DNA of 56,867 nucleotides from a virus (lineage: Duplodnaviria; Caudoviricetes): the IMG/VR virus record IMGVR_UViG_3300049042_000288, positions 1 to 56,867 of that record, one strand, 5' to 3'. Below are positions 2,419 through 56,867 of this stretch, in pieces. How positions within the stretch are numbered: position 1 is the stretch's first letter; every line of letters starts with the position of its first letter. The position numbers and the translations under genes were made by a program. Below the pieces are notes generated by a model. That model was not told the DNA's origin, ran no database searches, and was given only the letters and a program-made list of their open reading frames with translations.

Positions 2419-2594
2419 TAGCGTGCCACCTCGCAGTGTTCGACCTTTACGCGCATCTTGAGCGATGCCTCGCGCTCGGCCTTGAACTTCTTGCGAGCTT
2501 CGCGTGCATGCACGGCAACGATGAAGCCGTCCGTCTCAGCATAGTACATGCCGTCTTTTTCGTAGCAGGCGGCGATGAGGTAAAACTTTTTCAT
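2418..2594 (-). CDS. Hypothetical early protein (MKKFYLIAAC...)
   Basis: ATG at 2594 after the cassette RBS. Confidence 0.75.
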   Translation of the reverse strand: MKKFYLIAACYEKDGMYYAETDGFIVAVHAREARKKFKAEREASLKMRVKVEHCEVAR

Positions 2595-2698
2595 GTGGTG
2601 TCTCCGGTTCGTCGCAGCGCGCCGTCGCGCTGCCAACACCGATCAATATAAAGGGATCGCCGATTATTGCAAGCTGATTATATGCGACATGTTGTCAG
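2592..2698 (-). repeat. Early regulatory cassette copy 5 (head of the array)
   Basis: CTGACAACATGTCGCA box; TTGCAA(2672-2667)-N16-TATATT(2650-2645); hairpin GCAGCGCG-ACGG-CGCGCTGC; GGAGACACCACATG. Confidence 0.85.
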
Positions 2699-11656: not shown

Positions 11657-12100
11657 ATGCTGACTGAGACCAAGCTTTCGCAGATGGTCGGACGCCTCTG
11701 GATCGGTTGGTATGATCGCATCCAACCCGCTCATGGATCGACCATGGGTTTTCCTGACCTGCTCCTGTTCGATCCGGCGGTCGGTCACTTGCCTGTGGAG
11801 TTAAAGCTTGGGCACCACCCTCAGACCAATTTGATCCGCACCAGCGACTTGCGCCCTGCCCAAATCAGATGGCATAAAGGGATTGCCCAGCATGGCGGGT
11901 TCTCCGCGATCCTGATCGGCGTCCCTGATGGTAAAGGCTCTGCCACCATCTACGCAGTTAACGGACGCGATTGTGAGCGACTGCTCACTGACATCGGTAT
12001 CTTTGAAGGGGTGGCTACAAAGATCGCTCCTGTCGAGTTCAGAACAGCTCTCTTGAGCTGGGTGAAGATGGAGAAGTCGCATGCCAAGTCTCGTCCTTAG
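11657..12100 (+). CDS. PD-(D/E)XK nuclease (VRR-NUC/Holliday junction resolvase-like)
   Basis: GFPDLL...VELK...LRPAQIRWH. Confidence 0.8.
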   Translation: MLTETKLSQMVGRLWIGWYDRIQPAHGSTMGFPDLLLFDPAVGHLPVELKLGHHPQTNLIRTSDLRPAQIRWHKGIAQHGGFSAILIGVPDGKGSATIYAVNGRDCERLLTDIGIFEGVATKIAPVEFRTALLSWVKMEKSHAKSRP

Positions 12101-12581
12101 GGTTACCCGTGGCAGCGTGATTTACGCCACCGACAAGCTTAAATCAGTGATTTCGGTATACTGCCCCATCGAGACCCAGACACGCATCCATCGCAACGAT
12201 CCGAACAAGAACCGCCGCCGTATCGAGAAGCCCCTATTCCCCGGTTATGCTTTCGTTGAGGACACTCCCGAAGCTCGCAAGGTCGACCTGAAGCTCACCC
12301 TCGGCGACACGGCTGATGCCCACTACATGCACTGGAACGACAAGTACCTGCTCATTTCCGACCGGGAGATTGACCGGGTCAAGGCAATCGAGCGATCCAT
12401 TGCTGATCTGGCTGCAGTATCCCCCATAGGTCGGATCTGGAAGCCGGGCGACAGCGTCAAGATCCTGAGAGGCGTGCTGTCCGGGTCACTGGGCACAGTT
12501 GTTAACCTCCGCAAACGGACAGCCCTCGTAGCCATGAAGGGGCGCAGTCCGATTTTCATGGATGTGGCGATACTGGGGTAG
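12081..12581 (+). CDS. NusG-family transcription antitermination factor (NGN + KOW)
   Basis: EKPLFPGYAFV and KPGDSVKILRGVLSGSLGTV motifs. Confidence 0.85.
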   Translation: MPSLVLRVTRGSVIYATDKLKSVISVYCPIETQTRIHRNDPNKNRRRIEKPLFPGYAFVEDTPEARKVDLKLTLGDTADAHYMHWNDKYLLISDREIDRVKAIERSIADLAAVSPIGRIWKPGDSVKILRGVLSGSLGTVVNLRKRTALVAMKGRSPIFMDVAILG

Positions 12582-46791: not shown

Positions 46792-48545
46792 TGGCATGGA
46801 ATGGAACAGGCACGTTTGCTCGCCTCTACAACTGGGTTTCTCGCGCAGCGAATCCGGCAACGAAGTATATCGATGCCACGACCATGGATGCGGAGTTCGA
46901 CAACTTCAAAGGCGGACTTGAAAACTGTCTCACCCGCTCTGGTGAAACGACGCCGACCGCAAATCAGGCCATGTCGAACTTTCGTCATACTAGCGTTGGA
47001 GCTGCTACCTCCCTGACCGACTACGCCCGTGTCAATGAAGTCCAGAAGGGAACGATCTTCAGGGCTGCTTCGCCGGGCGGAACCATCGATGCCATGACTG
47101 CAACAGTCACGCCTGCGCCATCTCTGACGGCAGGCCAGATAGTGACGATCATCGCCCCGGGAACAGGATCGAACACAGTAACAAACCCGACGCTTACCTT
47201 GAACGGCGGAAGTGCCGTCACGATCAGGAAGAGTCAGACCGCGCTTGCGGTCGGTGATTACTCCGTTGGAGACACACTCTTTCTCGTGTACGACGGAACC
47301 TACTTCGAACTCACGAACCCGAAAAACGCCGTAACCGTAACCAACCCGCTCAGCGCCTTTACGACAGATGCGACAGGCGGCGATGTCGCCGACTTCATCC
47401 CATTCATCGACACGAGCGAAAGCAGTGCGAACAACAAGGTTCTTGTTCCTGACCTCCTGACGAACGCTCTTGCCAGCATCACGGCAAAAACAGCACCCAT
47501 CGCAGCCGACACCTTGATGGTCGGAGACAGCGCAGCTTCAAATGCCGTGAAGCGGTCTACCGTGGAAAACTTCTACAAAACCATCGTAGGCGTAACGGAG
47601 GACACGACGCCTGATATTGCTGATAGCGTTCTGACTTACGACACAAGCGCAAGCGCAGCAAAGCGTTCGACGGTCGCGAACCTTTACAAGACGATCAACG
47701 GCCTGACGACCGACAGTACGCCAGACGCTTCGGCTGATTTTATTCCGACATATGACACCAGCGCATCAGGTCCCAAAAAGGTTTCGATAAACGTCCTTCA
47801 GACGGTGTCTGTGCCGAGTGCATCCGGGTTGGTTGTGAAAAACAACACGGGGGCCCCGAACACGCAGATCGACATAACAGCGGACCATGCTGTTCTGGTC
47901 AACTCTTCGGGAGCCGCAAAGTACGTTTCCGGGGTTTCGCTGAACGTCAACTTCGCAACAACTGGAGCGAACGCGCTCGACACAGGGTCGCATGCTTCGA
48001 GCACTTGGTATTATGTCTGGATAATCTCGAACGGAACGACAACCGCAGGTCTTGGATCGACTTCGTCGACTTCGCCGACCATGCCATCTGGATATACATA
48101 TAAAATGCGAGTGGGGGCTGTTCGTACGAATGGCTCAACACAATTCATGCTCACGAACCAGCGTGGAAGAAACGTTCGATATCAGCTCAAGGCCGGATCG
48201 ACGACGACCATCTGGCCGAACATCGCCACGGGGGCTGTCGGCTCCGTCTCCACACCAACGTACGTTTCCACTTCAATCGCGACACAAGTCCCGCCAACGG
48301 CTGTCACGGTATGCCTGACCGCAGCAATTGCCGCCACTGCTTCAAACTTCCTCGCTGCACCAAGCGCAGATTATGGCAATTCAAGCAGCACTACAGCCAT
48401 TGCGCCGTTTGTTGTTCTTCCTGACGACTTTTACGGCGTAGGTGGCGTGGGCGAAGTTCAGCTTGAAACCAGCCAGACCATCTTCGTCGCACAAAACGGC
48501 GGGAACCTGAATTGTCTCGGTTGGGTTGACGCCATCAACGCTTGA
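46791..48545 (+). CDS. Tail fibre/receptor-binding protein
   Basis: N-terminal MAWNGTGTF...IDATTMDAEFD anchor; repeated D...YDTSAS..K; Thr/Ser-rich C-terminal domains. Confidence 0.75.
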   Translation: MAWNGTGTFARLYNWVSRAANPATKYIDATTMDAEFDNFKGGLENCLTRSGETTPTANQAMSNFRHTSVGAATSLTDYARVNEVQKGTIFRAASPGGTIDAMTATVTPAPSLTAGQIVTIIAPGTGSNTVTNPTLTLNGGSAVTIRKSQTALAVGDYSVGDTLFLVYDGTYFELTNPKNAVTVTNPLSAFTTDATGGDVADFIPFIDTSESSANNKVLVPDLLTNALASITAKTAPIAADTLMVGDSAASNAVKRSTVENFYKTIVGVTEDTTPDIADSVLTYDTSASAAKRSTVANLYKTINGLTTDSTPDASADFIPTYDTSASGPKKVSINVLQTVSVPSASGLVVKNNTGAPNTQIDITADHAVLVNSSGAAKYVSGVSLNVNFATTGANALDTGSHASSTWYYVWIISNGTTTAGLGSTSSTSPTMPSGYTYKMRVGAVRTNGSTQFMLTNQRGRNVRYQLKAGSTTTIWPNIATGAVGSVSTPTYVSTSIATQVPPTAVTVCLTAAIAATASNFLAAPSADYGNSSSTTAIAPFVVLPDDFYGVGGVGEVQLETSQTIFVAQNGGNLNCLGWVDAINA

Positions 48546-48554
48546 GGCAGCTTC

Positions 48555-49193
48555 ATGATCACGATGTCAACTGCAATATTTCTTGCTCTGATAGGCGCGA
48601 TCCTGAACAGGCTTCGCGGAGGGCTGTTCACGCACGTTGCACAAAACATCGGCTGGACGTGGGCCACCAAGCAGCGCACGACGACCATGCGCCTGATCTG
48701 GGCTGTGCCGACAGGCCTACTGCTCTGGCACCTCACAGGCCAGAATGATTGGTTCTGGGCGGCGTTCATCGCGTCTAGCTTCGCAGGGTATGCGATGCTC
48801 GGACACGGGGCTCACATGGTCTATCGCATCGATGAAATCCACGAATTTTGGCGCACCAAACCATTCGCACTTCAAACGGAGTTGACGACAAGGTGGCTTC
48901 CGTTCGCATTCGGAGAAAATCCAAACGCACTATGGTCGGAGCGAAAGCTGTGGACGTACCACATGATCGGAATGAGCTTCATAGGGCTCATCCGATCAGC
49001 AATCATGCTGTCCCCAATTTGGTGGACGGAAGCGACCTTTTCTGGTTCGCTCGCGCTGGTCTTGTCGGGGTTGTTGCTTGGCCCCTTGTACTGGCTGGGT
49101 GGGCGCATTCAAGGCTCACAGGCCGCTGAACTCCTTGTCGGCGCGTTATATTGGTTCACCTTCTATGGAGTGTTGGGGTTGAAATGGCTTTAA
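48555..49193 (+). CDS. Multi-pass membrane protein
   Basis: Several hydrophobic Trp-rich segments; LNRLRGG. Confidence 0.7.
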   Translation: MITMSTAIFLALIGAILNRLRGGLFTHVAQNIGWTWATKQRTTTMRLIWAVPTGLLLWHLTGQNDWFWAAFIASSFAGYAMLGHGAHMVYRIDEIHEFWRTKPFALQTELTTRWLPFAFGENPNALWSERKLWTYHMIGMSFIGLIRSAIMLSPIWWTEATFSGSLALVLSGLLLGPLYWLGGRIQGSQAAELLVGALYWFTFYGVLGLKWL

Positions 49194-49603
49194 GCGAACG
49201 AAGCAAGAAGGCGCTGGTGGGTGTCCATCCCGATCTGATCAAAATCGTCGAACTGGCGCACGATCTGGCGCGACAGAACGATCTTGACTTCATCATCACG
49301 GAGGGCTGCAGGACGCTCGCCACGCAGCGCAAGTACGTTGCCAAGGGCGTCTCCCAGACCCTCAAAAGCCGACACATCCCCGGCACTGATGGATACGGCA
49401 AGGCCGTGGATTTCGCCCCTGTGATCGACACGGACGGCGACGGAGACACAGAGGTCACATTCGCGTGGCCAGCCTTCTATCCCATCGCAGAGTGTTTCAA
49501 GGCCGCAGCAGCGACATTGCAGGTTCCCATCGTCTGGGGCGGTGATTGGAAGTCCTTCAAGGATGGCCCGCACATCGAACTCGACAGGAAGAAATATCCG
49601 TGA
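49184..49603 (+). CDS. Endolysin, M15 family L-Ala-D-Glu peptidase
   Basis: GVHPDL, EGCRT...Q, SRH, AVD, WGGDW...DGPHIEL. Confidence 0.9.
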   Translation: MALSERSKKALVGVHPDLIKIVELAHDLARQNDLDFIITEGCRTLATQRKYVAKGVSQTLKSRHIPGTDGYGKAVDFAPVIDTDGDGDTEVTFAWPAFYPIAECFKAAAATLQVPIVWGGDWKSFKDGPHIELDRKKYP

Positions 49604-49905
49604 CCGAGAGAAGAGACGATGAAGACAGCAACTGGCATTTAGACAAACGCATCCCCATTGTCACGCTCATAGCCATCCTCGGGCAGGCTGTTGCTCTTGG
49701 GTGGATGGCGTCGAGCATGGACGGGCGTATTGCTCAGCTTGAGGCCTACACAGAAGAACTGCGCGTATCGCGCATCAGAGAACGCATGGCCGTCGAAGAA
49801 GCTGCCACGGTCGTAACGTCGCAACGCTTCGTACAGCTCGATAACCAACTCGACCGTCTTGAAGACAAGGTGGACAAGATCGCTGAAAAGATAGGAGCAA
49901 AGTGA
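49600..49905 (+). CDS. Single-TM coiled-coil protein in the lysis cassette
   Basis: WHLDKRIPI, one TM segment, LDRLEDKVDKI; GTGA coupled. Confidence 0.7.
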   Translation: MTERRDDEDSNWHLDKRIPIVTLIAILGQAVALGWMASSMDGRIAQLEAYTEELRVSRIRERMAVEEAATVVTSQRFVQLDNQLDRLEDKVDKIAEKIGAK

Positions 49906-50007
49906 CTGCACGGTGGCTAAGGCCATCTCCAGCCCGAAGGCTGCGCTCTCGTTGCCCCCTGAGCGTAGCTGCCATCGTGCGGGCCAACTGGGGCGAAGGA
50001 GACTTAA

Positions 50008-50238
50008 ATGAACGACACAGGTAAATCCGCAATCACGTCTGTCGGAATCATGGGCCCGGCACTGGCGATCCTCGTCCTGCTCCTGAACCAGTTCCTGTTC
50101 AAGGGCTCGGTCATTACCGATGCCGATATCACCTCGACTATCGATGCCGTCAGCACTCTGGTCGGTCTCGTCACTGGCATCATCGGTCGCTGGAAGGCGA
50201 CCACGGCCATCACTTCGGTCCTGCCGCCGAAGCAGTGA
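50008..50238 (+). CDS. Putative holin
   Basis: 76 aa, two hydrophobic segments, basic C-terminus, between endolysin and spanins. Confidence 0.6.
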   Translation: MNDTGKSAITSVGIMGPALAILVLLLNQFLFKGSVITDADITSTIDAVSTLVGLVTGIIGRWKATTAITSVLPPKQ

Positions 50239-50468
50239 CATACCTTCAAGCCGTCCTTGGACTGATCCAGATCATCAACTGGGTCATGTCCAAGCTTGAC
50301 GAAGAGAAGAAGGCCAAAGCATTGGCTCTTCTCTGGGAGCAGGAATTCATGAAGCGCGACAAGGAGATCATCGATGCAGCCAGCTCTGCGCGTGCTGCTG
50401 CTGAGCAGCGTCTTCGCGACAACCCTAACGGGCTGCGCGACCCTGACCCATTTGAACGCCCCGACTAA
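50235..50468 (+). CDS. Putative i-spanin (Rz-like)
   Basis: N-terminal hydrophobic segment then helical region; overlapped by a lipoprotein gene. Confidence 0.6.
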   Translation: MTYLQAVLGLIQIINWVMSKLDEEKKAKALALLWEQEFMKRDKEIIDAASSARAAAEQRLRDNPNGLRDPDPFERPD

Positions 50469-50634
50469 GCCTGAGTACGATCCTCGGCTCACCTTCTGTC
50501 AGGTGTTCACGCCGATCCTGTGGAACAAGCGGGACACGGACGAGACCCTGAGACAGGTCAAGGCTCACAACGATGTGTGGGTGACCACCTGCGGGCCTAT
50601 ATCGCGCCCCCCGCCCAAATCCCTGCCACCTTGA
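50374..50634 (+). CDS. Putative o-spanin lipoprotein (Rz1-like)
   Basis: Lipobox LTGC after a hydrophobic signal; overlaps the preceding gene in another frame. Confidence 0.65.
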   Translation: MQPALRVLLLSSVFATTLTGCATLTHLNAPTKPEYDPRLTFCQVFTPILWNKRDTDETLRQVKAHNDVWVTTCGPISRPPPKSLPP

Positions 50635-50703
50635 CAAGCGGTACGGGTTTCAGGATTGGTGAGTGACCCACAGAACAAGTGGGCGTTTACTCCCATGAAC
50701 TTG

Positions 50704-50735
50704 GGGGCAGTCTGGAAACGGACTGCCCCTTTTTT
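50704..50735 (+). terminator. Rho-independent terminator ending the late operon
   Basis: GGGGCAGTC-TGGAAACG-GACTGCCCC-TTTTTT at the convergence of the two transcription directions. Confidence 0.9.
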
Positions 50736-50737
50736 AT

Positions 50738-51070
50738 TCAGGCCGTAGCCTTCTCGTGCTTCATCGTCTCGTAAAGCTTGCGCGCCACGTTGCGATCCGC
50801 CTTCGTATCGAAGTCGTACTGGGCCTTATTCCCCCTCCCCAGCGTCGTCACACGACCGAAACTGATGCCATGGACGGCCAGCTTCAACCCCAGCATCCGC
50901 AACGCCAGCTTGGCGTGGTTGCGGCGCATCGCAGGCGTCTGCTTGTGCTCAATCGTCTTGACGTACTTCATCTTCTGCGTTGCGTAATCCAGCTCAACCG
51001 CCCCCTCACTCTTCGCAAACTTGTTGAGCACCAGCTCCAGCATGTTGAATTCCCGTTCAGTCAACTTCAT
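50738..51070 (-). CDS. Basic hypothetical protein
   Basis: 110 aa, RBS AAGGAG. Confidence 0.7.
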   Translation of the reverse strand: MKLTEREFNMLELVLNKFAKSEGAVELDYATQKMKYVKTIEHKQTPAMRRNHAKLALRMLGLKLAVHGISFGRVTTLGRGNKAQYDFDTKADRNVARKLYETMKHEKATA

Positions 51071-52712
51071 CGTTCAATATCTCCTTGATGTCACCCAGTG
51101 CCAAATCCGAAACGGATTTCTTCGCACGCAGGTTGGCCAAAATTCTCCGATCAGGAGACCCAACACACACCAGATCAAAGTAAGTCACGGTCCCTTGCAT
51201 GCCGATGCGGTGGGTCCGGTCCTCACTTTGCCACCTGTCCAACGACGAGAACGAATTCGAATAGTAGACCACAGTCCGGCAACCGCCGCCCTGCAGGTTC
51301 AGTCCGGTGCCCCCGGCTGCAGGATTGGAGACGAAGTAGTCTATCCCTGACGCAGGGTCAAGAAAAAGCGATACCGCTTTCTGACGGTCCTCTGAGCTGG
51401 TGGCCCCATAATAAGTTGCAGCCTTTTCACCCAGCGCCCTCTTGATCAACTCGATGTCGGCGTTGAACCGTGCCCAGATAATTGCTTTCCCCGGGCGCTG
51501 ATCCAACAGGTCCATCAGGGCGTCCATGCGCGGGTTGGCGATCAAGGTGTGCTCACCGCCCTCCTCCGCGGACGGAAGGACGCCACAGGTGATCTGCTGC
51601 AGCCTGAGCAGGCACGTGGCCGCGATCTTCACCGAGACCACATCGCCGTTGTCGAGCTGAGTCATGAAGGTGTCCCGCAGCGACTTGTAATGACGCTTCT
51701 GTTCGTCAGACATCTCGAATGGAACCGTGGCATAGACTTTCGGCGGCAGATCGAGATCGCTCTCCTTGGTGACCCGAAACGAGTACGGGTCAACTCGGGA
51801 TTTGAACTCCGGGAGGTTGCGCGTGCCGATGACCTGCCTGTTCTCGAAGCCGCCCATGACGCAGAACTGGTTGCGGAACGAGGTCAGGTAGCGGATGCCG
51901 ATTATACCCTCATCGAGGAACTTGAATTGGCTCCACTCGTCGCACAAATCTTTGGCGATGGGGGTGCCTGTCAGGATCATCCTGTGGCTCGCGTAGGGGG
52001 CGAGTTTGTAGCACGCCTGCGTGCGCTTTGCAGTCGTGTTCTTAATGATGTGGGACTCGTCGATGATGATCGCCAACCGTCCCTTGAACATCTTCACGAA
52101 TTTTTCGATGACCGCCGATCCTGTCTTCGTGATCGTGCTGTCGACGTTCACCGAGGCGATCTTCAGTTCTGGCGTGTTCAGGAACAGGTTCTTGGTGAAC
52201 CCCTTACCCGTCCAGTACGCAGCCACGTGCGGCACCTCCCCCAGATGGGTCGGTATCTGCTCGTTCACCCACTGGGCGTGGACGCCCTTCTTCGTGATGA
52301 TCAGCGCAGCGTCGATCTTGCTCTCGGCGTACAACTCGCCGACCCTGTCGATGGCTACCTTGGTCTTGCCCGTCCCCTGCTCCGCGAACAGAGCAAACAC
52401 GTCGTACTTTCGAGAGGCTTCCAACGCTCTCATCTGATGGGCGTAGGCCTTCGTGCGCGGGTGATAGGTCGCCCGCTGCAGTCTGGAGGCGGCTGGCCCG
52501 GCAGGGACCTCTACGGGCTCCTCCGGGACCTTGAACGAAACGCTCGGGATGAGCGCCGAGATCACCCGGCGGTTATGCCCGGTGTCCTCGACGATCATGC
52601 GGTCGCCGCCGACGAAGTATCGTCGACCTTCCATGCCTGTCAGCGCCGTTGCAACTTGTGACCCACGCGCAACGGGGAGATTGATGAGACCTGATTTGCA
52701 GACGGCTTCCAT
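51057..52712 (-). CDS. SNF2-family (SF2) helicase
   Basis: EQGTGKT, IIDESH, LTGTP, GLNLQ, QSEDRTHRIG; start 52712 or 52634. Confidence 0.9.
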   Translation of the reverse strand: MEAVCKSGLINLPVARGSQVATALTGMEGRRYFVGGDRMIVEDTGHNRRVISALIPSVSFKVPEEPVEVPAGPAASRLQRATYHPRTKAYAHQMRALEASRKYDVFALFAEQGTGKTKVAIDRVGELYAESKIDAALIITKKGVHAQWVNEQIPTHLGEVPHVAAYWTGKGFTKNLFLNTPELKIASVNVDSTITKTGSAVIEKFVKMFKGRLAIIIDESHIIKNTTAKRTQACYKLAPYASHRMILTGTPIAKDLCDEWSQFKFLDEGIIGIRYLTSFRNQFCVMGGFENRQVIGTRNLPEFKSRVDPYSFRVTKESDLDLPPKVYATVPFEMSDEQKRHYKSLRDTFMTQLDNGDVVSVKIAATCLLRLQQITCGVLPSAEEGGEHTLIANPRMDALMDLLDQRPGKAIIWARFNADIELIKRALGEKAATYYGATSSEDRQKAVSLFLDPASGIDYFVSNPAAGGTGLNLQGGGCRTVVYYSNSFSSLDRWQSEDRTHRIGMQGTVTYFDLVCVGSPDRRILANLRAKKSVSDLALGDIKEILNDEVD

Positions 52713-53146
52713 GGAACAAATACCCTTCTGATGTGTGTTTCGCACCAAGAGCCCCGACATGGGGCCCCGCAAAAATTCCGTGTCGAGGCTTCGCCTTCGA
52801 TCCACTGGCACGTTCCGGGTTTCCCGGACTCCAGAAGCTTCTTCAGGCGCTCGTCCTTCGACGGCTTGCCGCGCCCGAGCGCAATGGGCCTCGGCTCCAA
52901 CACTGGCAAGGATATCACATTTTGCCAATTACCGTGAGACTTGGTTACGGCAGCGATGTGCGTTTTTGTGATAACCTCATCGCCACGATTCTGGGCCCGA
53001 AAGACGATCCCAGAGACTACGTTTTTTGAGATGCCGAGATGCCGGGCGATGGCGGCGTGACTCATTCCTTTGGCCTTGAGCTTGTTGACTTCGGCCAGAT
53101 CAGCTTCGATCTTTTTTGACGGACGCTTCTTACGGTCGCACTTCAT
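52640..53146 (-). CDS. gcrA: GcrA-like cell-cycle regulator
   Basis: N-terminal GMSHAAIARHLGISKNVVSGIVFR; C-terminal CQWIEG...FCGAP...SWCETH. Confidence 0.8.
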   Translation of the reverse strand: MKCDRKKRPSKKIEADLAEVNKLKAKGMSHAAIARHLGISKNVVSGIVFRAQNRGDEVITKTHIAAVTKSHGNWQNVISLPVLEPRPIALGRGKPSKDERLKKLLESGKPGTCQWIEGEASTRNFCGAPCRGSWCETHIRRVFVPWKPSANQVSSISPLRVGHKLQRR

Positions 53147-53167
53147 GTTCTTCTCCTGTTGAATGTC

Positions 53168-53202
53168 GCGGGAGGAGGAGACACCACATCCACTCCTCCC
53201 GC
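53168..53202 (-). terminator. 3' hairpin with anti-RBS loop, copy 1
   Basis: Minus strand GCGGGAGGAG-TGGATGTGGTGTCTC-CTCCTCCCGC just after the stop of 53219-53914; no clear U tract. Confidence 0.65.
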
Positions 53203-53218
53203 TAGACTCCCGGGGCGC

Positions 53219-53914
53219 TTAGAGCGCCGCGAGAGCCCGATCTTCCCAGCCGTACCCTTCTTCGTCACGGCTGACGTATTCCTGTGCATCGTAGTCATAG
53301 ACCACGTCTTCGTGGCCATGGCTCTCACCGACCGACACCTTCAGGCCGTGGCCCTTCGGGTTGTGCGGCAGGCCGTACTTCTCGGCGCAGATCGGGCCGT
53401 AGCCAACTTCGATGCTGCCTGCATCGCTCAGCTCGCGGCTGCAGAAGCAGCAGTTGCCCGTGGCGTGGCCGTGCGCGGCTGCGGCCTTGACCGGGTCACA
53501 GGCGAAGGCCTTGACCTTCTCGAACGCCTGAGTGGCGTTCTCAGAGGCGACCGGATACCAGCGGCCATCCGCCGTGATCTTGCCGAGGTACTCAGTGCCC
53601 TGCTTCACGTAGGTGGCACCGATGTTGGTCGACGTGGCCTTCGCGGGCGAGAGCGTCACGCCAGCGACCTTGATCTTCGGGTTCTTCAGGCCCGCCGACA
53701 GGGCCTTCGAGAAGAGACCGCCGATGCGGGCGAGGTCAACAACTTCGCGTTCCGTGACAGGGGCCGTGGCTTTCTCGGCCAGCTTCGTGACCCAGTAGAT
53801 CTGCTTCGCCGACAGCGAACCGTAGCGGTCGAACGAGGCGATCAGACTCGACGCGAAATCGCGGTCCTTGATCGAGAGATTGTTGAGGTTGGTCTTGAGG
53901 GCTGAAATCGTCAT
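53219..53914 (-). CDS. DUF6011-like zinc-finger domain protein
   Basis: ATG after the cassette RBS; GNCCFCSRELSD..SIEVGYGPICA. Confidence 0.75.
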   Translation of the reverse strand: MTISALKTNLNNLSIKDRDFASSLIASFDRYGSLSAKQIYWVTKLAEKATAPVTEREVVDLARIGGLFSKALSAGLKNPKIKVAGVTLSPAKATSTNIGATYVKQGTEYLGKITADGRWYPVASENATQAFEKVKAFACDPVKAAAAHGHATGNCCFCSRELSDAGSIEVGYGPICAEKYGLPHNPKGHGLKVSVGESHGHEDVVYDYDAQEYVSRDEEGYGWEDRALAAL

Positions 53915-54010
53915 GTGGTGTCTCCGTCTTCGCCGCAGCGCGCCATCGCGCCGCCGACAGGTGAAGTTATAGGGGATCACCTTTTACTTGTCAAACGAAA
54001 TGGGTGCGAC
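53912..54010 (-). repeat. Early regulatory cassette copy 6
   Basis: TGTCGCA half box; TTGACA(53994-53989)-N17-TATAAC(53971-53966); hairpin GCGGCGCG-ATGG-CGCGCTGC; GGAGACACCACATG. Confidence 0.85.
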
Positions 54011-54097
54011 AAAAGCTCCCCCGGGAGGTTGTTGGGCACGCCCTCCCGGGAGTTCTCCCCCTCGCGTGCGGACGGATGCCGACGCGAGGGAAGCTTG
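54011..54097 (-). terminator. Double-hairpin 3' UTR/terminator
   Basis: CCCTCGCGT...ACGCGAGGG, then CCCGGGAGG...CCTCCCGGG, then CTTTTG. Confidence 0.6.
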
Positions 54098-54556
54098 TTA
54101 AGCCAGCTCGGGCTCAGGGATCGCCTCTTCGACGATCTGGCCAGTGGTCATCCCGAACTTCGCTTTCATGTACTCAAGCTTCAGCTCAAGCTCACGGATT
54201 TCCTGCTGCAGCTTGTCGATCTTTGTCCCGATCTTCTTTGCGTAGAAGTCGATGTTCTTCTCGAACGGACCGACAAGCGCCGCGGTGATCTCGATATCCT
54301 TCGTGCTGTCGTTCCAGACGAGGAACTTCACGTCCACGCTGTAGCCGTCCTCGATGTAGGCGATCACGATGGACGGCCTTGTCTTGAAAGGCTCAAACCC
54401 GATCACGATTCCGTCGAACACGGCATGGTCGCCGTAGGTCGCTTTCTTAAGGATGCGGAGGCGATCCCCGACTTTCATGGTGCTACGAACGACGGCCTGC
54501 GTCATCACTTCGAAGGACTGCCCCTTCAGCTCAATTTGTTGTGTATTCACGTTCAC
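54098..54556 (-). CDS. Hypothetical protein with C-terminal coiled coil
   Basis: GTG after AGGAGA. Confidence 0.7.
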   Translation of the reverse strand: MNVNTQQIELKGQSFEVMTQAVVRSTMKVGDRLRILKKATYGDHAVFDGIVIGFEPFKTRPSIVIAYIEDGYSVDVKFLVWNDSTKDIEITAALVGPFEKNIDFYAKKIGTKIDKLQQEIRELELKLEYMKAKFGMTTGQIVEEAIPEPELA

Positions 54557-54770
54557 TCTCCTGTGTCTGTCGATCCCGGGCATAAGCGCCCTTGTAGTTG
54601 ACAACGTTAAAAATGGTCTGCTCAGTCACGCCGAACTCTCTCGCCAGCGTGGCGTAGGTGTGGTGAACCTTGCGGGGTCCATAAAGTTCACGGTTCAGGA
54701 TTTCCCCGTCCCGATAGAGACGACGGATGTCATTTGCCGCCTCTAAGTTGACACTACGCTGCCGCGACAC
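54531..54770 (-). CDS. Small HTH DNA-binding protein
   Basis: IRRLY...YATLAREFGVTEQTIFNVV. Confidence 0.65.
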   Translation of the reverse strand: MSRQRSVNLEAANDIRRLYRDGEILNRELYGPRKVHHTYATLAREFGVTEQTIFNVVNYKGAYARDRQTQESEREYTTN

Positions 54771-55035
54771 GGCAGTCCTCAGTGATAGACTTTCCCGTCA
54801 ACGCCGCCAGCAGCGCCCGGGGGTCCGCGAACATCACGATCCCTGTCTTCCGCTGAAGGTCGTAGACTCGACTGCCAGCATCGGCGATATCACCAAGGAT
54901 GACCTTGGCCTCGGCCTCGCTGGTACTCGAGGTCATGTGGTTCAATCGATGGCAGGCAATCATGAACGAGCTGTAGGCCATCATCAGGTCCTTGATCTGC
55001 TCGCGCTCTTCCCAGCTCAGGATCAGGCTTATCAT
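54754..55035 (-). CDS. Hypothetical protein
   Basis: 93 aa, ATGA coupled. Confidence 0.7.
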   Translation of the reverse strand: MISLILSWEEREQIKDLMMAYSSFMIACHRLNHMTSSTSEAEAKVILGDIADAGSRVYDLQRKTGIVMFADPRALLAALTGKSITEDCRVAAA

Positions 55036-55322
55036 TGATCCAGCTCCTCGGCGAACGCCACCCTGTGCTCTTCTTCCCAGCCGTCGATGTCGTCAGACGT
55101 GACGGTCATGGCCTTGAAGAACACGGTCTCGAAGTTGTCGGCGTTCATTCCATGAAGAATGTCGCTCGGCATAACGCTGCCGGGCTTAGACTCCTTGGTG
55201 TTGACGATCAGCGTCCACGTGTCGCGATGGCCCATCTTGCGTCGAGTAATGGTGCCATTCACGCCACCGTCGAATTCGATATCGAATTCGGTGATGGAAT
55301 TTGGTCGAGTTGTTAGTTTCAT
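55032..55322 (-). CDS. Hypothetical acidic protein
   Basis: RBS AAGGAGAC; own promoter upstream. Confidence 0.7.
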   Translation of the reverse strand: MKLTTRPNSITEFDIEFDGGVNGTITRRKMGHRDTWTLIVNTKESKPGSVMPSDILHGMNADNFETVFFKAMTVTSDDIDGWEEEHRVAFAEELDQ

Positions 55323-55351
55323 TCAGATGTCTCCTTTGTTTTGACCAGCCG

Positions 55352-55398
55352 ATTATCGGCGATCCCATATAAAAACGCAATCACTCTTTATGCGACAT
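55352..55398 (-). promoter_or_regulatory. Degenerate cassette-type promoter
   Basis: ATGTCGCA half box, then TTGCGT(55380-55375)-N17-GATAAT(55357-55352). Confidence 0.55.
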
Positions 55399-55602
55399 TT
55401 TGGTTTGTACAGCCCGGCGCATTTTCGAGCTGCAGTTCAATAATGACCGATGGTCAGAAGGTGACGACGGCAGGAAAACCGTCGCCCCTGTTTGTCTGTG
55501 TATGACCACCCAGTGGCCGCTCCCAGCACGATCTGCGATCTCCCAGCCGCGGCCCTCCTCCCGCTTCATGAACTCCCGGATGATCTTATTTGGCCTTGGC
55601 AT
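55381..55602 (-). CDS. HicA-like small protein
   Basis: GWEI...GSGHWVVIH...TVFLPSSPSDHR. Confidence 0.55.
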   Translation of the reverse strand: MPRPNKIIREFMKREEGRGWEIADRAGSGHWVVIHRQTGATVFLPSSPSDHRSLLNCSSKMRRAVQTKMSHKE

Positions 55603-55777
55603 CTTCGCGGTCCTTCAATCTGACGTTGCTCTCGAAGTACGGTCTCCAGTAGCCATGCACTTGTCGGTACGCAGCCTCCTTGTCGGTGGCCCAGACGCTC
55701 TCTGCATTCCACCCTTCGATACCGTCGCGCCCGCACTCGTACACGTCGACCTCGTACAGCTTTAGTCCCTTATCCAT
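55586..55777 (-). CDS. Hypothetical protein (MDKGLKLYEV...)
   Basis: RBS GAGG; short overlaps with both neighbours. Confidence 0.65.
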   Translation of the reverse strand: MDKGLKLYEVDVYECGRDGIEGWNAESVWATDKEAAYRQVHGYWRPYFESNVRLKDREDAKAK

Positions 55778-55976
55778 GGGTGACCGCCTCGTCCGTGTTG
55801 ACGACACGTGGTTTGGCTTCCATGAACTTCGCCGGATCAGCGAAAGCCATGCGGATGCAAAGCTCTGCGTCTTCCTCTGTGGCGAAAACGTAAGGAGGGC
55901 AACCGCTGGGCTTGAGACAGACCCGCTCGTGCTTTCCTTTTTTGGTGACAATAGATAACTCAATTTTGAACCCCAC
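55770..55976 (-). CDS. Hypothetical protein
   Basis: GTG after AAGGAG. Confidence 0.65.
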   Translation of the reverse strand: MGFKIELSIVTKKGKHERVCLKPSGCPPYVFATEEDAELCIRMAFADPAKFMEAKPRVVNTDEAVTHG

Positions 55977-56005
55977 TTTTTTCTCCTTTCCGGTGCCTGT
56001 TGATG

Positions 56006-56047
56006 AAAAGCGGGAGGAGGGGAGACACCACATCATCCTCCTCCCGC
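56006..56047 (-). terminator. Terminator hairpin with anti-RBS loop, copy 2
   Basis: Minus strand GCGGGAGGAGG-ATGATGTGGTGTCTCC-CCTCCTCCCGC-TTTT after the DUF932-like gene stop. Confidence 0.75.
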
Positions 56048-56057
56048 CCCGGGCGGC

Positions 56058-56867
56058 TTAGGCGGCGAGGGCGAGAAGGCCCCGCTTTGCCTCTTCCACC
56101 GTCTTCGCCCGGTCCCCAAACCACGCCGAGGTCATGCGCGCATCGCGCACCCGGCCTGCGCGGTGATTGGTCCAGTAGGTCACGCCGTTGAAGACGCCCC
56201 AGCCAGACTGACGTTCGCCGGGCGTCGATCCCGGAGCGGTCTGGATGCTGTCCAGAACCTCGCTCAGAGGTTTGTTGACGCCCACGCCAGCCGTCAGGCG
56301 TTCGAGGAACTTCGCCTGCGTCAGGCCAGCATCCTCAAGCTCCTGCTCGGTGGCAGGCTGCAGCAGCGGCTGCAGGAACTTGACGATGTCGAAGCGGCCC
56401 AGCTCCACCTTCGTCAGGGTGTTGTAGGCATCCGCCTGATCGGCAGCGGCCTGCACCGCGAGGTCGTACATCGAGCGTACCGCGCCGAAGTCGAACTCGC
56501 TGGAGTGCGTCTGGGTGTATTCCATACCACCCTCACGCATCGCCATCGCTTCGGTGTTCGCGCAGACCACGCGGGTCGACACGGCCTTCGCCTTGTTGGC
56601 CTTGCCGACCACGTGTGACCAGCTCAGCAGCAGGTAGTTCTTGACCACGTCGTCAGCCTTGCCGACAAAAAAGTCCTTATTGATGTTGATCAGCGTGAAC
56701 GGCGTCTTGCCGTCACGGAGCGATCCGGCAGTCTCGACGAACGATCCAGTCTCGTCAGCGAATTCCTTCGCGAAAGCGAAGAAGGCGTCGTTCTGGGTCG
56801 GGGTCCAGCGCGAGCTGGCGACCGTGAACTGAGCGCCGTCCGTTGATCGGACTGCAACGCGGTGGCT
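56058..56867 (-). CDS. DUF932/TIGR03299-like protein, open to the window edge
   Basis: Frame open from 56867: QNDAFF...ETAGSLRDGK...NYLLLSWSH...RVVCANT...WGVFNGVTYWTNH...SAWFG. Confidence 0.85.
   Translation of the reverse strand, partial: SHRVAVRSTDGAQFTVASSRWTPTQNDAFFAFAKEFADETGSFVETAGSLRDGKTPFTLININKDFFVGKADDVVKNYLLLSWSHVVGKANKAKAVSTRVVCANTEAMAMREGGMEYTQTHSSEFDFGAVRSMYDLAVQAAADQADAYNTLTKVELGRFDIVKFLQPLLQPATEQELEDAGLTQAKFLERLTAGVGVNKPLSEVLDSIQTAPGSTPGERQSGWGVFNGVTYWTNHRAGRVRDARMTSAWFGDRAKTVEEAKRGLLALAA

Follow-up and report, generated by a model that had tools for sequence, protein, structure and literature searches.

The switch from early to middle expression in phages is mostly attributed to proteins, i.e., repressors, RegA/RegB-type factors, and RNA polymerase modifiers; in T4, RegA is a protein that acts on early messages through features of their ribosome-binding sites (RBSs). 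In MS2, a long-range coat/replicase pairing masks an RBS in cis, while OOP and sar are cis-antisense RNAs transcribed from the opposite strand. Here, we describe a candidate RNA element in the phage record IMGVR_UViG_3300049042_000288, namely two hairpins that follow the stop codons of a DUF6011-like and a DUF932-like gene, and whose apices carry the exact antisense of a translation initiation region common to six early genes. The window, i.e., the whole stretch of DNA analyzed, corresponds to an entire IMG/VR virus record (56,867 bp), which is classed as linear and has an estimated completeness of 100.

The closest phage parallel is the start-associated sequence (SAS) of Cluster K mycobacteriophages. 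The SAS is a 13-bp sequence, GGGATAGGAGCCC, located 3–9 bp upstream of the start codon at 13–19 gene starts; it is asymmetric and near-invariant, contains a Shine–Dalgarno (SD) sequence, and stands before the ATG of many non-structural/early genes (PMC3203893). A subset of these sequences (ESAS) is preceded by an inverted repeat with a putative promoter, and K1 phages have a single SAS copy in the opposite orientation, away from gene starts, which the available text of Pope et al. 2011 leaves uninterpreted, just as it leaves open which protein or RNA partners the SAS may have (PMC3203893). SAS function was still termed unknown in papers from 2024 and 2025 (PMC11373665). Outside this cluster, a 3′ sequence of the Staphylococcus aureus icaR mRNA pairs with the SD of the same molecule, blocks the initiation complex, and yields an RNase III substrate (PMC3868564), and in Bacillus subtilis hbs a 14-bp duplex between the 5′ and 3′ untranslated regions (UTRs) modulates RNase Y cleavage of the leader and protects the mRNA (PMC5737220). 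The T4 RegB endoribonuclease cuts GGAG in early mRNAs (PMC1702504). A preliminary description of the window had known of no phage system with this layout, and our literature search for a phage 3′-hairpin/anti-RBS system found no case, which does not prove its absence from print. The K1 reverse SAS had nevertheless been recorded, if without interpretation in the text available (PMC3203893), and 3′ pairing with a gene's own SD is itself a mechanism already known from icaR (PMC3868564).

The motif shared by the early starts is a 13-mer, GGAGACACCACAT, found on the minus strand as exact copies at 46, 550, 1341, 2593, and 53913 and with one mismatch (C>T) at 1953. Each minus-strand copy finishes with the AT of the ATG that opens an open reading frame (ORF), i.e., the 13-mer common to the six sites comprises the SD, a 7-nt spacer, and the AU of the AUG. 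The plus strand holds only two exact copies, at 53177–53189 and 56021–56033. Motif, inverted-repeat, and fold scans thereby confirmed the central observation of the preliminary description, that a motif repeated at six starts recurs as its exact reverse complement at two hairpin apices after stop codons. The six upstream regions align as a single promoter-leader cassette with a fixed order: a head (TGACRACATGTCGCA), an inverted repeat over a TTGACA-like −35, a −10 (GATCCCCTATAAC), a GC-rich leader hairpin, and an invariant 14-mer, GGAGACACCACATG. In five of the six cassettes, the TGA within the head is the stop codon of the preceding gene. The cassettes are as follows:

2592–2697, minus strand: early cassette 1, recognized by motif and alignment, with an ORF of 58 amino acids
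1952–2058, minus strand: early cassette 2, with the variant RBS GGAGACACCATATG and an ORF of 64 amino acids
1340–1446, minus strand: early cassette 3, recognized by motif and alignment, with an ORF of 78 amino acids
549–654, minus strand: early cassette 4, recognized by motif and alignment, with an ORF of 71 amino acids
45–153, minus strand: early cassette 5, whose ORF leaves the record start and presumably forms the N-terminal part of the DUF932-like gene
53912–54019, minus strand: early cassette 6, with −35 TTGACA, −10 TATAAC, a leader hairpin, and GGAGACACCACATG, driving the DUF6011-like gene

The two hairpin modules and the genes that they follow are:

53219–53914, minus strand: DUF6011-like gene (ORF list, Pfam)
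53155–53221, minus strand: hairpin module 1, comprising the DUF6011-like stop codon, CCCGGG, a 10-bp stem (53193–53202/53168–53177), a 15-nt loop with AUGUGGUGUCUC(C), and a CAACAGG tail
53177–53189, minus strand: anti-RBS 13-mer of hairpin 1, as RNA AUGUGGUGUCUCC
56058–56867, minus strand: DUF932-like gene, its 5′ end truncated by the record end
55996–56060, minus strand: hairpin module 2, comprising the DUF932-like stop codon, CCCGGG, an 11-bp stem (56037–56047/56010–56020), a 16-nt loop with the full 13-mer, UUUUC, and CAACAGG
56021–56033, minus strand: anti-RBS 13-mer of hairpin 2, from the motif scan

The stem arms, recovered at these positions by an inverted-repeat search, start 16 and 10 nt past the ends of the DUF6011-like (53219) and DUF932-like (56058) ORFs, respectively. 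On the minus-strand RNA, the loops read (UGG)AUGUGGUGUCUC(C) in hairpin 1 and AUGAUGUGGUGUCUCC in hairpin 2, which places 12 of the 13 antisense bases in the first loop and all 13 in the second, i.e., a seed displayed in the loop; minimum-energy folds add a few stem pairs and 3–4 weak pairs within the loops. Both modules are placed where a cassette unit gives way to genes without a cassette: a GcrA-like gene with its own SD (starting at 53146) lies downstream of hairpin 1, and an ORF of 67 amino acids, also with its own SD and starting at 55973 (GTG), lies downstream of hairpin 2. The stem is followed by GACAUUC, with no U tract, in hairpin 1 and by UUUUC in hairpin 2. Neither was called by the terminator scan and neither is of the intrinsic terminator type, yet hairpin 2 could act as a weak terminator. 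Rfam gave no match at its gathering score across the whole window, and the only sub-threshold match over hairpin 2 was to a chance microRNA model (E 0.84).

From base composition, 0.0011 exact plus-strand copies of the 13-mer would be expected, compared to the two observed. At ≤2 mismatches, GGAGACACCACAT had 11 matches against a shuffle mean of 1.56, and none of 100 shuffles reached 11. Exact 13-nt inverted pairs between arbitrary sites are common in this sequence (81 pairs vs ~39 in block shuffles), and the significance of the antisense copies therefore rests on the motif being defined beforehand, on their position at a hairpin apex, and on their presence in both members of the repeat family. 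The two modules align over ~70 nt, from the stop codon to the common CAACAGG, with identical blocks CTAAGC, CCCGGG, the stem arms, GATGTGGTGTCT plus CC, and TCAACAGG; the 14-nt apical block (G plus the 13-mer) is identical in both. Differences comprise two substitutions and a 6-nt indel on the 5′ side of the stem, indels at either edge of the loop, and the 5–6 nt that come after the stem. Judged by this alignment, the two modules are paralogues, so that the antisense copy counts as one independent event and not two, and the pattern points to a single origin after which stem and loop block were kept while the surroundings changed. Similarity between modules and cassettes is confined to the 13-mer (14 nt for hairpin 1 vs the cassette at 46). 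A further stretch on the minus strand, at 55553–55566 inside an ORF of 73 amino acids (55381–55602), repeats 14 nt of the 5′ arm of hairpin 2 (56008–56021) and is thus complementary to its 3′ arm; the preceding CCGGGAGT resembles the start of a hairpin module, and the stretch may be a third, partial module copy or a chance match.

The layout of the window indicates on which strand the hairpins would be read. Rightward genes span ~2838 to 46791, while the early-looking region lies on the minus strand and runs leftward, from ~2700 down to 1 and from 56867 down to ~48460. A strong plus-strand terminator-like hairpin at 50703–50730 ends the rightward block, and no plus-strand promoter-like site was called within 48000–56867; minus-strand RNA is therefore most likely the only form in which the hairpins are read. 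Nor was any promoter-like site called adjoining either hairpin. The modules do not conform to the cis-antisense RNA type, having no opposite-strand promoter (48000–56867) and carrying their antisense bases on the same strand as their targets. The units starting at 2593, 1953, 1341, and 550 hold one or two small ORFs each and run directly into the next cassette head, and since no terminator was called between them, long nested leftward transcripts are to be expected.

Predicted pairing energies were computed for loop and target. The 13-bp duplex amounts to −22.9 kcal/mol, or −21.0 kcal/mol with the C>U variant, the sole one among the cassettes, which stands opposite a G and retains a G·U pair. 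Freeing the 13-mer would cost 8.2 kcal/mol for hairpin 1, 2.0 for hairpin 2, and between 1.8 and 4.2 for the leaders of the six cassettes, leaving a net predicted gain of about −12 kcal/mol for hairpin 1 and about −18 kcal/mol for hairpin 2. When 63 gene starts were ranked as partners, the six cassettes were the six best for either apex, scoring −25.3 to −30.8; the next-best start reached −20.2, and the medians were −12.2 and −12.8. Such a ranking is a consequence of the complementarity itself, yet it still shows that no other start in the genome is targeted.

We tentatively favor, with a confidence that stops somewhat short of an even chance, a model in which these sense-encoded hairpins mask the shared early RBS by RNA pairing, in cis and/or in trans. 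The modules would be RNA elements within the leftward early transcripts, placed after the first gene of a cassette-driven unit, in which a GC-rich stem presents a 15–16-nt apical loop with 13 bases that are the exact antisense of the initiation region. The loop would nucleate a 13-bp duplex with that region and so block 30S binding, and the duplex may also become a substrate for a double-strand-specific nuclease; the outcome would be a negative feedback on early proteins that rises as early RNA accumulates. Through a cis route, 3′-to-5′ pairing inside one mRNA would act on the two flanked genes, whereas a trans route could reach all six cassettes by way of long polycistronic RNAs or of stable hairpin-ended products of decay or processing. 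RNA pairing is favored because of the stable stem, the long apical loop, the exact seed against SD, spacer, and AU, and the location on the transcribed strand. From the sequence, the placement of the modules, and the predicted fold and duplex energies, we infer that the sites are transcribed, that the duplex forms in vivo, and that translation would respond. The RNA control circuit put forward in the preliminary description thus gains qualified, model-based support: the antisense is non-random, displayed in a loop, and on the transcribed strand, and its predicted pairing is favorable and specific to the six starts.

Several observations weigh against this reading. Within the window, only two cassette units carry a hairpin, and in the minimum-energy folds only five loop bases are fully unpaired. 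The link between the cassette at 46 and the DUF932-like gene is discontinuous in the record. The preliminary description had the DUF932-like gene start at 47, which is plausible, except that on direct joining of the record ends the ATG at 47 opens a frame that stops after 74 codons and differs from that of DUF932, from which it follows that some sequence between the record ends is lacking. Contigs from three other runs reach 130–392 nt past base 56867. The DUF932 fragment aligns to its homologue in Aminobacter phage Erebus from about residue 64 of that protein, and ~45 N-terminal residues seem to be missing. The 15 codons behind the cassette at 46 could be the DUF932 N-terminus, and by its position this cassette likely drives the gene.

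The comparison with relatives adds to this side of the balance, as scans of GenBank phages, IMG/VR, metagenomes, and a genome collection turned up no relative that carries the cassette or the hairpin, although relatives may have been missed, since several pattern scans give lower bounds only and records nearly identical to the window fell outside the scans. Megablast of 52800–56867 against GenBank phages returned no match. Tblastn found distant relatives only, with partial matches to the large terminase TerL at ≤49.6%, DUF932 at ≤39.7%, and the DNA polymerase DnaE at ≤45.5% identity, falling to 33–39% over longer matches. Erebus has its DUF932 gene followed by a plain terminator and lacks the cassette. 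With protein anchors in IMG/VR, DUF932 gave no confirmed locus, DUF6011 three loci at 37% without the layout, SNF2 one locus at 33%, and DnaE three loci at 33–36%, with no counterpart of cassette or hairpin module among the repeats listed. Pattern scans of IMG/VR yielded at least 106 loci for the 14-mer (single occurrences save in one unrelated virus), 14 for the stem, all unrelated, 60 single matches for the cassette head, none of them recovered by nhmmer with a cassette profile, and 16 for the anti-RBS sequence, none a homologue of the hairpin module; one look-alike of the stem lies within a coding region beside tail-type genes (L127). In metagenomes, the promoter pattern gave at least 118 loci and the only nhmmer match to the cassette was unconvincing (E 0.13). 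In the genome collection, the hairpin-module pattern gave no locus and the leader pattern at least 120, with weak nhmmer matches (best E 0.0012) over the part of the profile that the pattern had matched.

Close strains of the phage do exist, since sequencing runs from 11 studies, mostly labeled freshwater, contain the stretch partly or fully as DNA; no RNA sequencing run containing it was found among the runs listed. Contigs of four DNA runs were compared, in which some stretches are uncovered, rare variants are lost, and 93 differences lie outside those displayed. One strain differs by 2–5% (e.g., 43/897 and 21/912 letters). Hairpin 1 is spanned by one contig, without a difference, and hairpin 2 by three, the most divergent of which has 21 differences, the 18 listed all falling outside 56010–56047. 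These strains, 95–99% identical, show no listed change in either hairpin, where less than one would be expected per hairpin, and the comparison has no power to reveal the co-variation that the pairing model would call for. At 53239–53279, one metagenome strain (run X7) has lost 39 nt in frame close to the 3′ end of the DUF6011-like gene, ~20 nt before the stop codon and the hairpin module.

The target motif itself is, in addition, a generically good start site. Among the 108 occurrences of GGAGACACCACATG listed from other viral contigs, 72 open an ORF of ≥60 codons in the frame of the ATG, compared to 7 and 26 in the other frames, an excess indicating that the 14-mer is simply a good SD, 7-nt spacer, and ATG. 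An IMG/VR fragment of 32,755 bp and 48.6% G+C (L053/G001), with no protein in common with the window at E 1e-4, has exact copies of GGAGACACCACATG and of the 13-mer at three gene starts, with near-copies at further starts; every copy at ≤2 mismatches points forward, and no reverse copy occurs at that threshold within its 32.7 kb. With 2.9 million contigs searched, finding this repeated spacer in another phage may be a coincidence. As this fragment repeats the 14-mer without a reverse copy, an invariant spacer needs no antisense partner, and the proposal of the preliminary description that the hairpins explain the nearly constant SD-to-ATG distance is weakened accordingly, the more so since the Cluster K SAS is invariant whatever the loop. 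In four other contigs (L056, L057, L100, and L103), GGTGTCTCC lies 13 nt upstream of GGAGACACCACATG and forms a local hairpin that would sequester this SD.

Cluster K provides both the nearest precedent and a further counterweight. In Anaya, the reverse SAS copy matches at 12 of 13 bases, lies within the 385-nt gp96–gp97 spacer (locus L466, 39848–39902), and forms the 10-nt apical loop of a long hairpin with fold z-scores of −2.6 (71 nt) and −3.7 (141 nt). This spacer matches 182 phage records, from which 13 were chosen, non-randomly, across a spread listing; the hairpin aligns in all 13, with compensatory changes in 8 of 16 consensus pairs. Judged from sequence, Cluster K is thus an unrelated lineage that displays the antisense of a repeated start motif in a coding-strand hairpin loop. 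The anti-start loop is present in five of the 13 sampled phages (Anaya, Angelica, Yunkel11, Peanam, and SgtBeansprout), whereas in the other eight the loop is a different pyrimidine-rich one, is unrelated, or is affected by a deletion. All five whole genomes checked, each from among these eight, have a different loop yet retain 17–19 forward SAS copies (≤2 mismatches) with the SAS unchanged. Because the SAS stays invariant where the loop is changed or lost, the anti-start loop is dispensable in Cluster K and, by the same comparison, appears as an accessory feature without co-variation with the SAS.

The alternative that survives best, an unlikely one that nonetheless deserves serious weight, treats the modules as ordinary intercistronic structures, i.e., a 3′ stabilizer, attenuator, partial terminator, or processing site, in which the antisense copy is a historical by-product and would have no role in pairing. 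An inverted copy could, for example, have been captured in a stem with SD-like and anti-SD-like arms, with processing uncoupling a strongly expressed first gene from those behind it. The placement fits this explanation, as both hairpins are intercistronic and come straight after a stop codon, each downstream gene has an SD of its own, and UUUUC follows hairpin 2; the arms are GGAGG/CCUCC-like, the other cassette units also end at a hairpin-forming inverted repeat (the next cassette head), and the homologous Cluster K hairpin is kept with unrelated loops. It leaves unaccounted for an exact 13-nt match to the sole conserved motif, expected 0.001 times, and a loop block that is intact in both diverged paralogues while its neighbors differ; the loops of plain stabilizers normally vary freely. 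Moreover, a U tract is absent from hairpin 1, and the terminator scan called neither hairpin.

We consider it improbable that the 13-bp box is instead a DNA site for a protein, be it a phage or host regulator or a roadblock, acting in either orientation and possibly on extruded cruciforms. The box does occur in both orientations, a GcrA-like/helix-turn-helix gene (52643–53146) adjoins hairpin 1, and the available text of Pope et al. leaves the partners of the SAS, protein or RNA, open (PMC3203893). Yet the box has no internal symmetry, and in the cassettes it overlaps SD and start codon ~45 nt past the predicted −10, an odd position for an operator. The reverse copies sit exactly in the loop of a 10–11-bp inverted repeat, a trait of antisense RNA and not of operators, and no candidate binder was identified.

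Less probable still is a hidden start site, in which the GGAGG of the 5′ arm would serve as SD for the loop AUG, 3–5 nt away, and a short upstream ORF would tune the next gene once a ribosome terminating 10–16 nt upstream had melted the stem. The loop AUG of hairpin 2 is in frame with the next ORF (88 amino acids, 55770–56036), and that of hairpin 1 opens a 19-codon frame ending 15 nt inside the GcrA-like gene; the frames thus differ between modules, the downstream genes have their own well-spaced SD, and the exact complementarity to the cassette RBS would be left unexplained. Scarcely credible, finally, is the view that the 13-bp copies are inverted repeats for DNA inversion or cassette mobility: they do bracket the DUF6011-like and DUF932-like genes in opposite orientations, but inverting would merely cut each gene off from its own promoter, homologous exchange would have very little to work with in 13 bp, the Pfam scan of 63 ORFs gave no recombinase family, and the inversion between inverted 13-mers that the preliminary description had envisaged left no such joint in the contigs of the four DNA runs, which drop rare variants. 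The remaining probability is assigned to explanations outside those considered here.

Beyond the modules, Pfam matches suggest a tailed dsDNA phage that has components of the podophage type, including DNA polymerase III alpha, the large and the small terminase, Pam3 gp34/gp33-like proteins, a GP4 fiber gp80-like protein, an SU10 adaptor, an SNF2 helicase, a GcrA-like helix-turn-helix protein, DUF932, and DUF6011. The presence of the GcrA-like gene hints at an alphaproteobacterial host. RNA chaperone, RNase III, and recombinase families were found neither among the 63 ORFs scanned with Pfam (two sets, 22 and 41) nor among 21 early ORFs scanned with PHROGs. Just 5′ of the small terminase gene, the product of 12081–12578 (plus strand) has a weak NusG-like match (E 5.5e-4; 20.8 bits, below the cutoff of 22.2) and may, by this resemblance, be a phage elongation/antitermination factor for late genes.

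The surroundings of the cassettes show some further structure. Inverted repeats over the cassette −35 regions, at 615–644, 1404–1436, and 2010–2039, have arms that differ between cassettes yet remain self-complementary, and these cassette-head repeats could be operators or RNA hairpins terminating the preceding unit. A seventh promoter-like unit on the minus strand (55320–55420) has a related head (ATGTCGCA) and −10 region with another start site, GGAGACATCTGAATG, which has only its first seven bases in common with the 13-mer; it drives an ORF of 96 amino acids (55322–55035). Just upstream of cassette 6, and after a gene ending at 54098, the minus strand carries two successive GC-rich hairpins (54007–54095), the second reading CCCGGGAGG...CCTCCCGGG followed by GGAGCUUUUG; these are probably the terminator of the preceding unit.

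If the hairpins do act as proposed, they would provide compact, protein-free feedback or timing of a whole early regulon by a sense-strand RNA hairpin. They would also suggest a testable role for motifs that recur within RBSs, the Cluster K SAS among them, and supply a small orthogonal RBS/anti-RBS pair for synthetic biology. The broader idea that anti-start-site hairpins, embedded in early transcripts or released from them, are a recurrent phage device, a dose-dependent timer of early-gene shut-off that titrates a shared RBS and arose independently here and in Cluster K1, seems doubtful to us at present; if it held, it would give a first functional handle on the SAS, a sequence unexplained since 2011.

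Compared to Cluster K, the window shows an analogous layout only: a repeated SD-containing motif at early starts with an inverted repeat and promoter ahead of it, as in SAS/ESAS, and a conserved hairpin whose apical loop carries a reverse copy of the motif. The two differ in motif sequence, host phylum, and phage, and share no sequence homology. The motif here, GGAGACACCACAT, does not follow the SAS consensus and overlaps the start codon, covering its first two bases, unlike the SAS; it is thus an analogue of the SAS and not a member. The Cluster K reverse copy matches at 12/13 and sits behind a terminator in an intergenic region of 385 nt, whereas here it is exact and directly after a stop codon, and the Cluster K loop is not retained across subclusters although the SAS is.

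Likeness to icaR lies in a complement of the same gene's SD downstream of the stop codon, found here for both genes, with the DUF932 5′ end discontinuous in the record. That system is bacterial, with a long 3′UTR, a 7-nt UCCCCUG, and a single target, while the present modules are phage-borne, intercistronic, and in two copies, each with a 13-nt loop-displayed sequence and six potential targets. With hbs, they share a long-range duplex of similar length between mRNA ends, which in hbs is not aimed at the SD or start codon. Terminators and 3′ stabilizers likewise have a GC-rich stem right after the coding region, and four U follow the stem of hairpin 2; hairpin 1 differs from them in lacking a U tract, and both differ in their long 15–16-nt loops and conserved loop sequence. 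As with T4 RegB and RegA, a set of early phage messages would be shut down via a shared RBS feature, but RegB and RegA are proteins and MS2 has an RNA genome with one target, whereas we propose a sense-encoded RNA hairpin in a dsDNA podophage. Taken together, pairing between a 3′ sequence and an SD and antisense loops are both known; what is new is an exact 13-nt phage module matched to a six-gene early regulon and placed directly behind stop codons.

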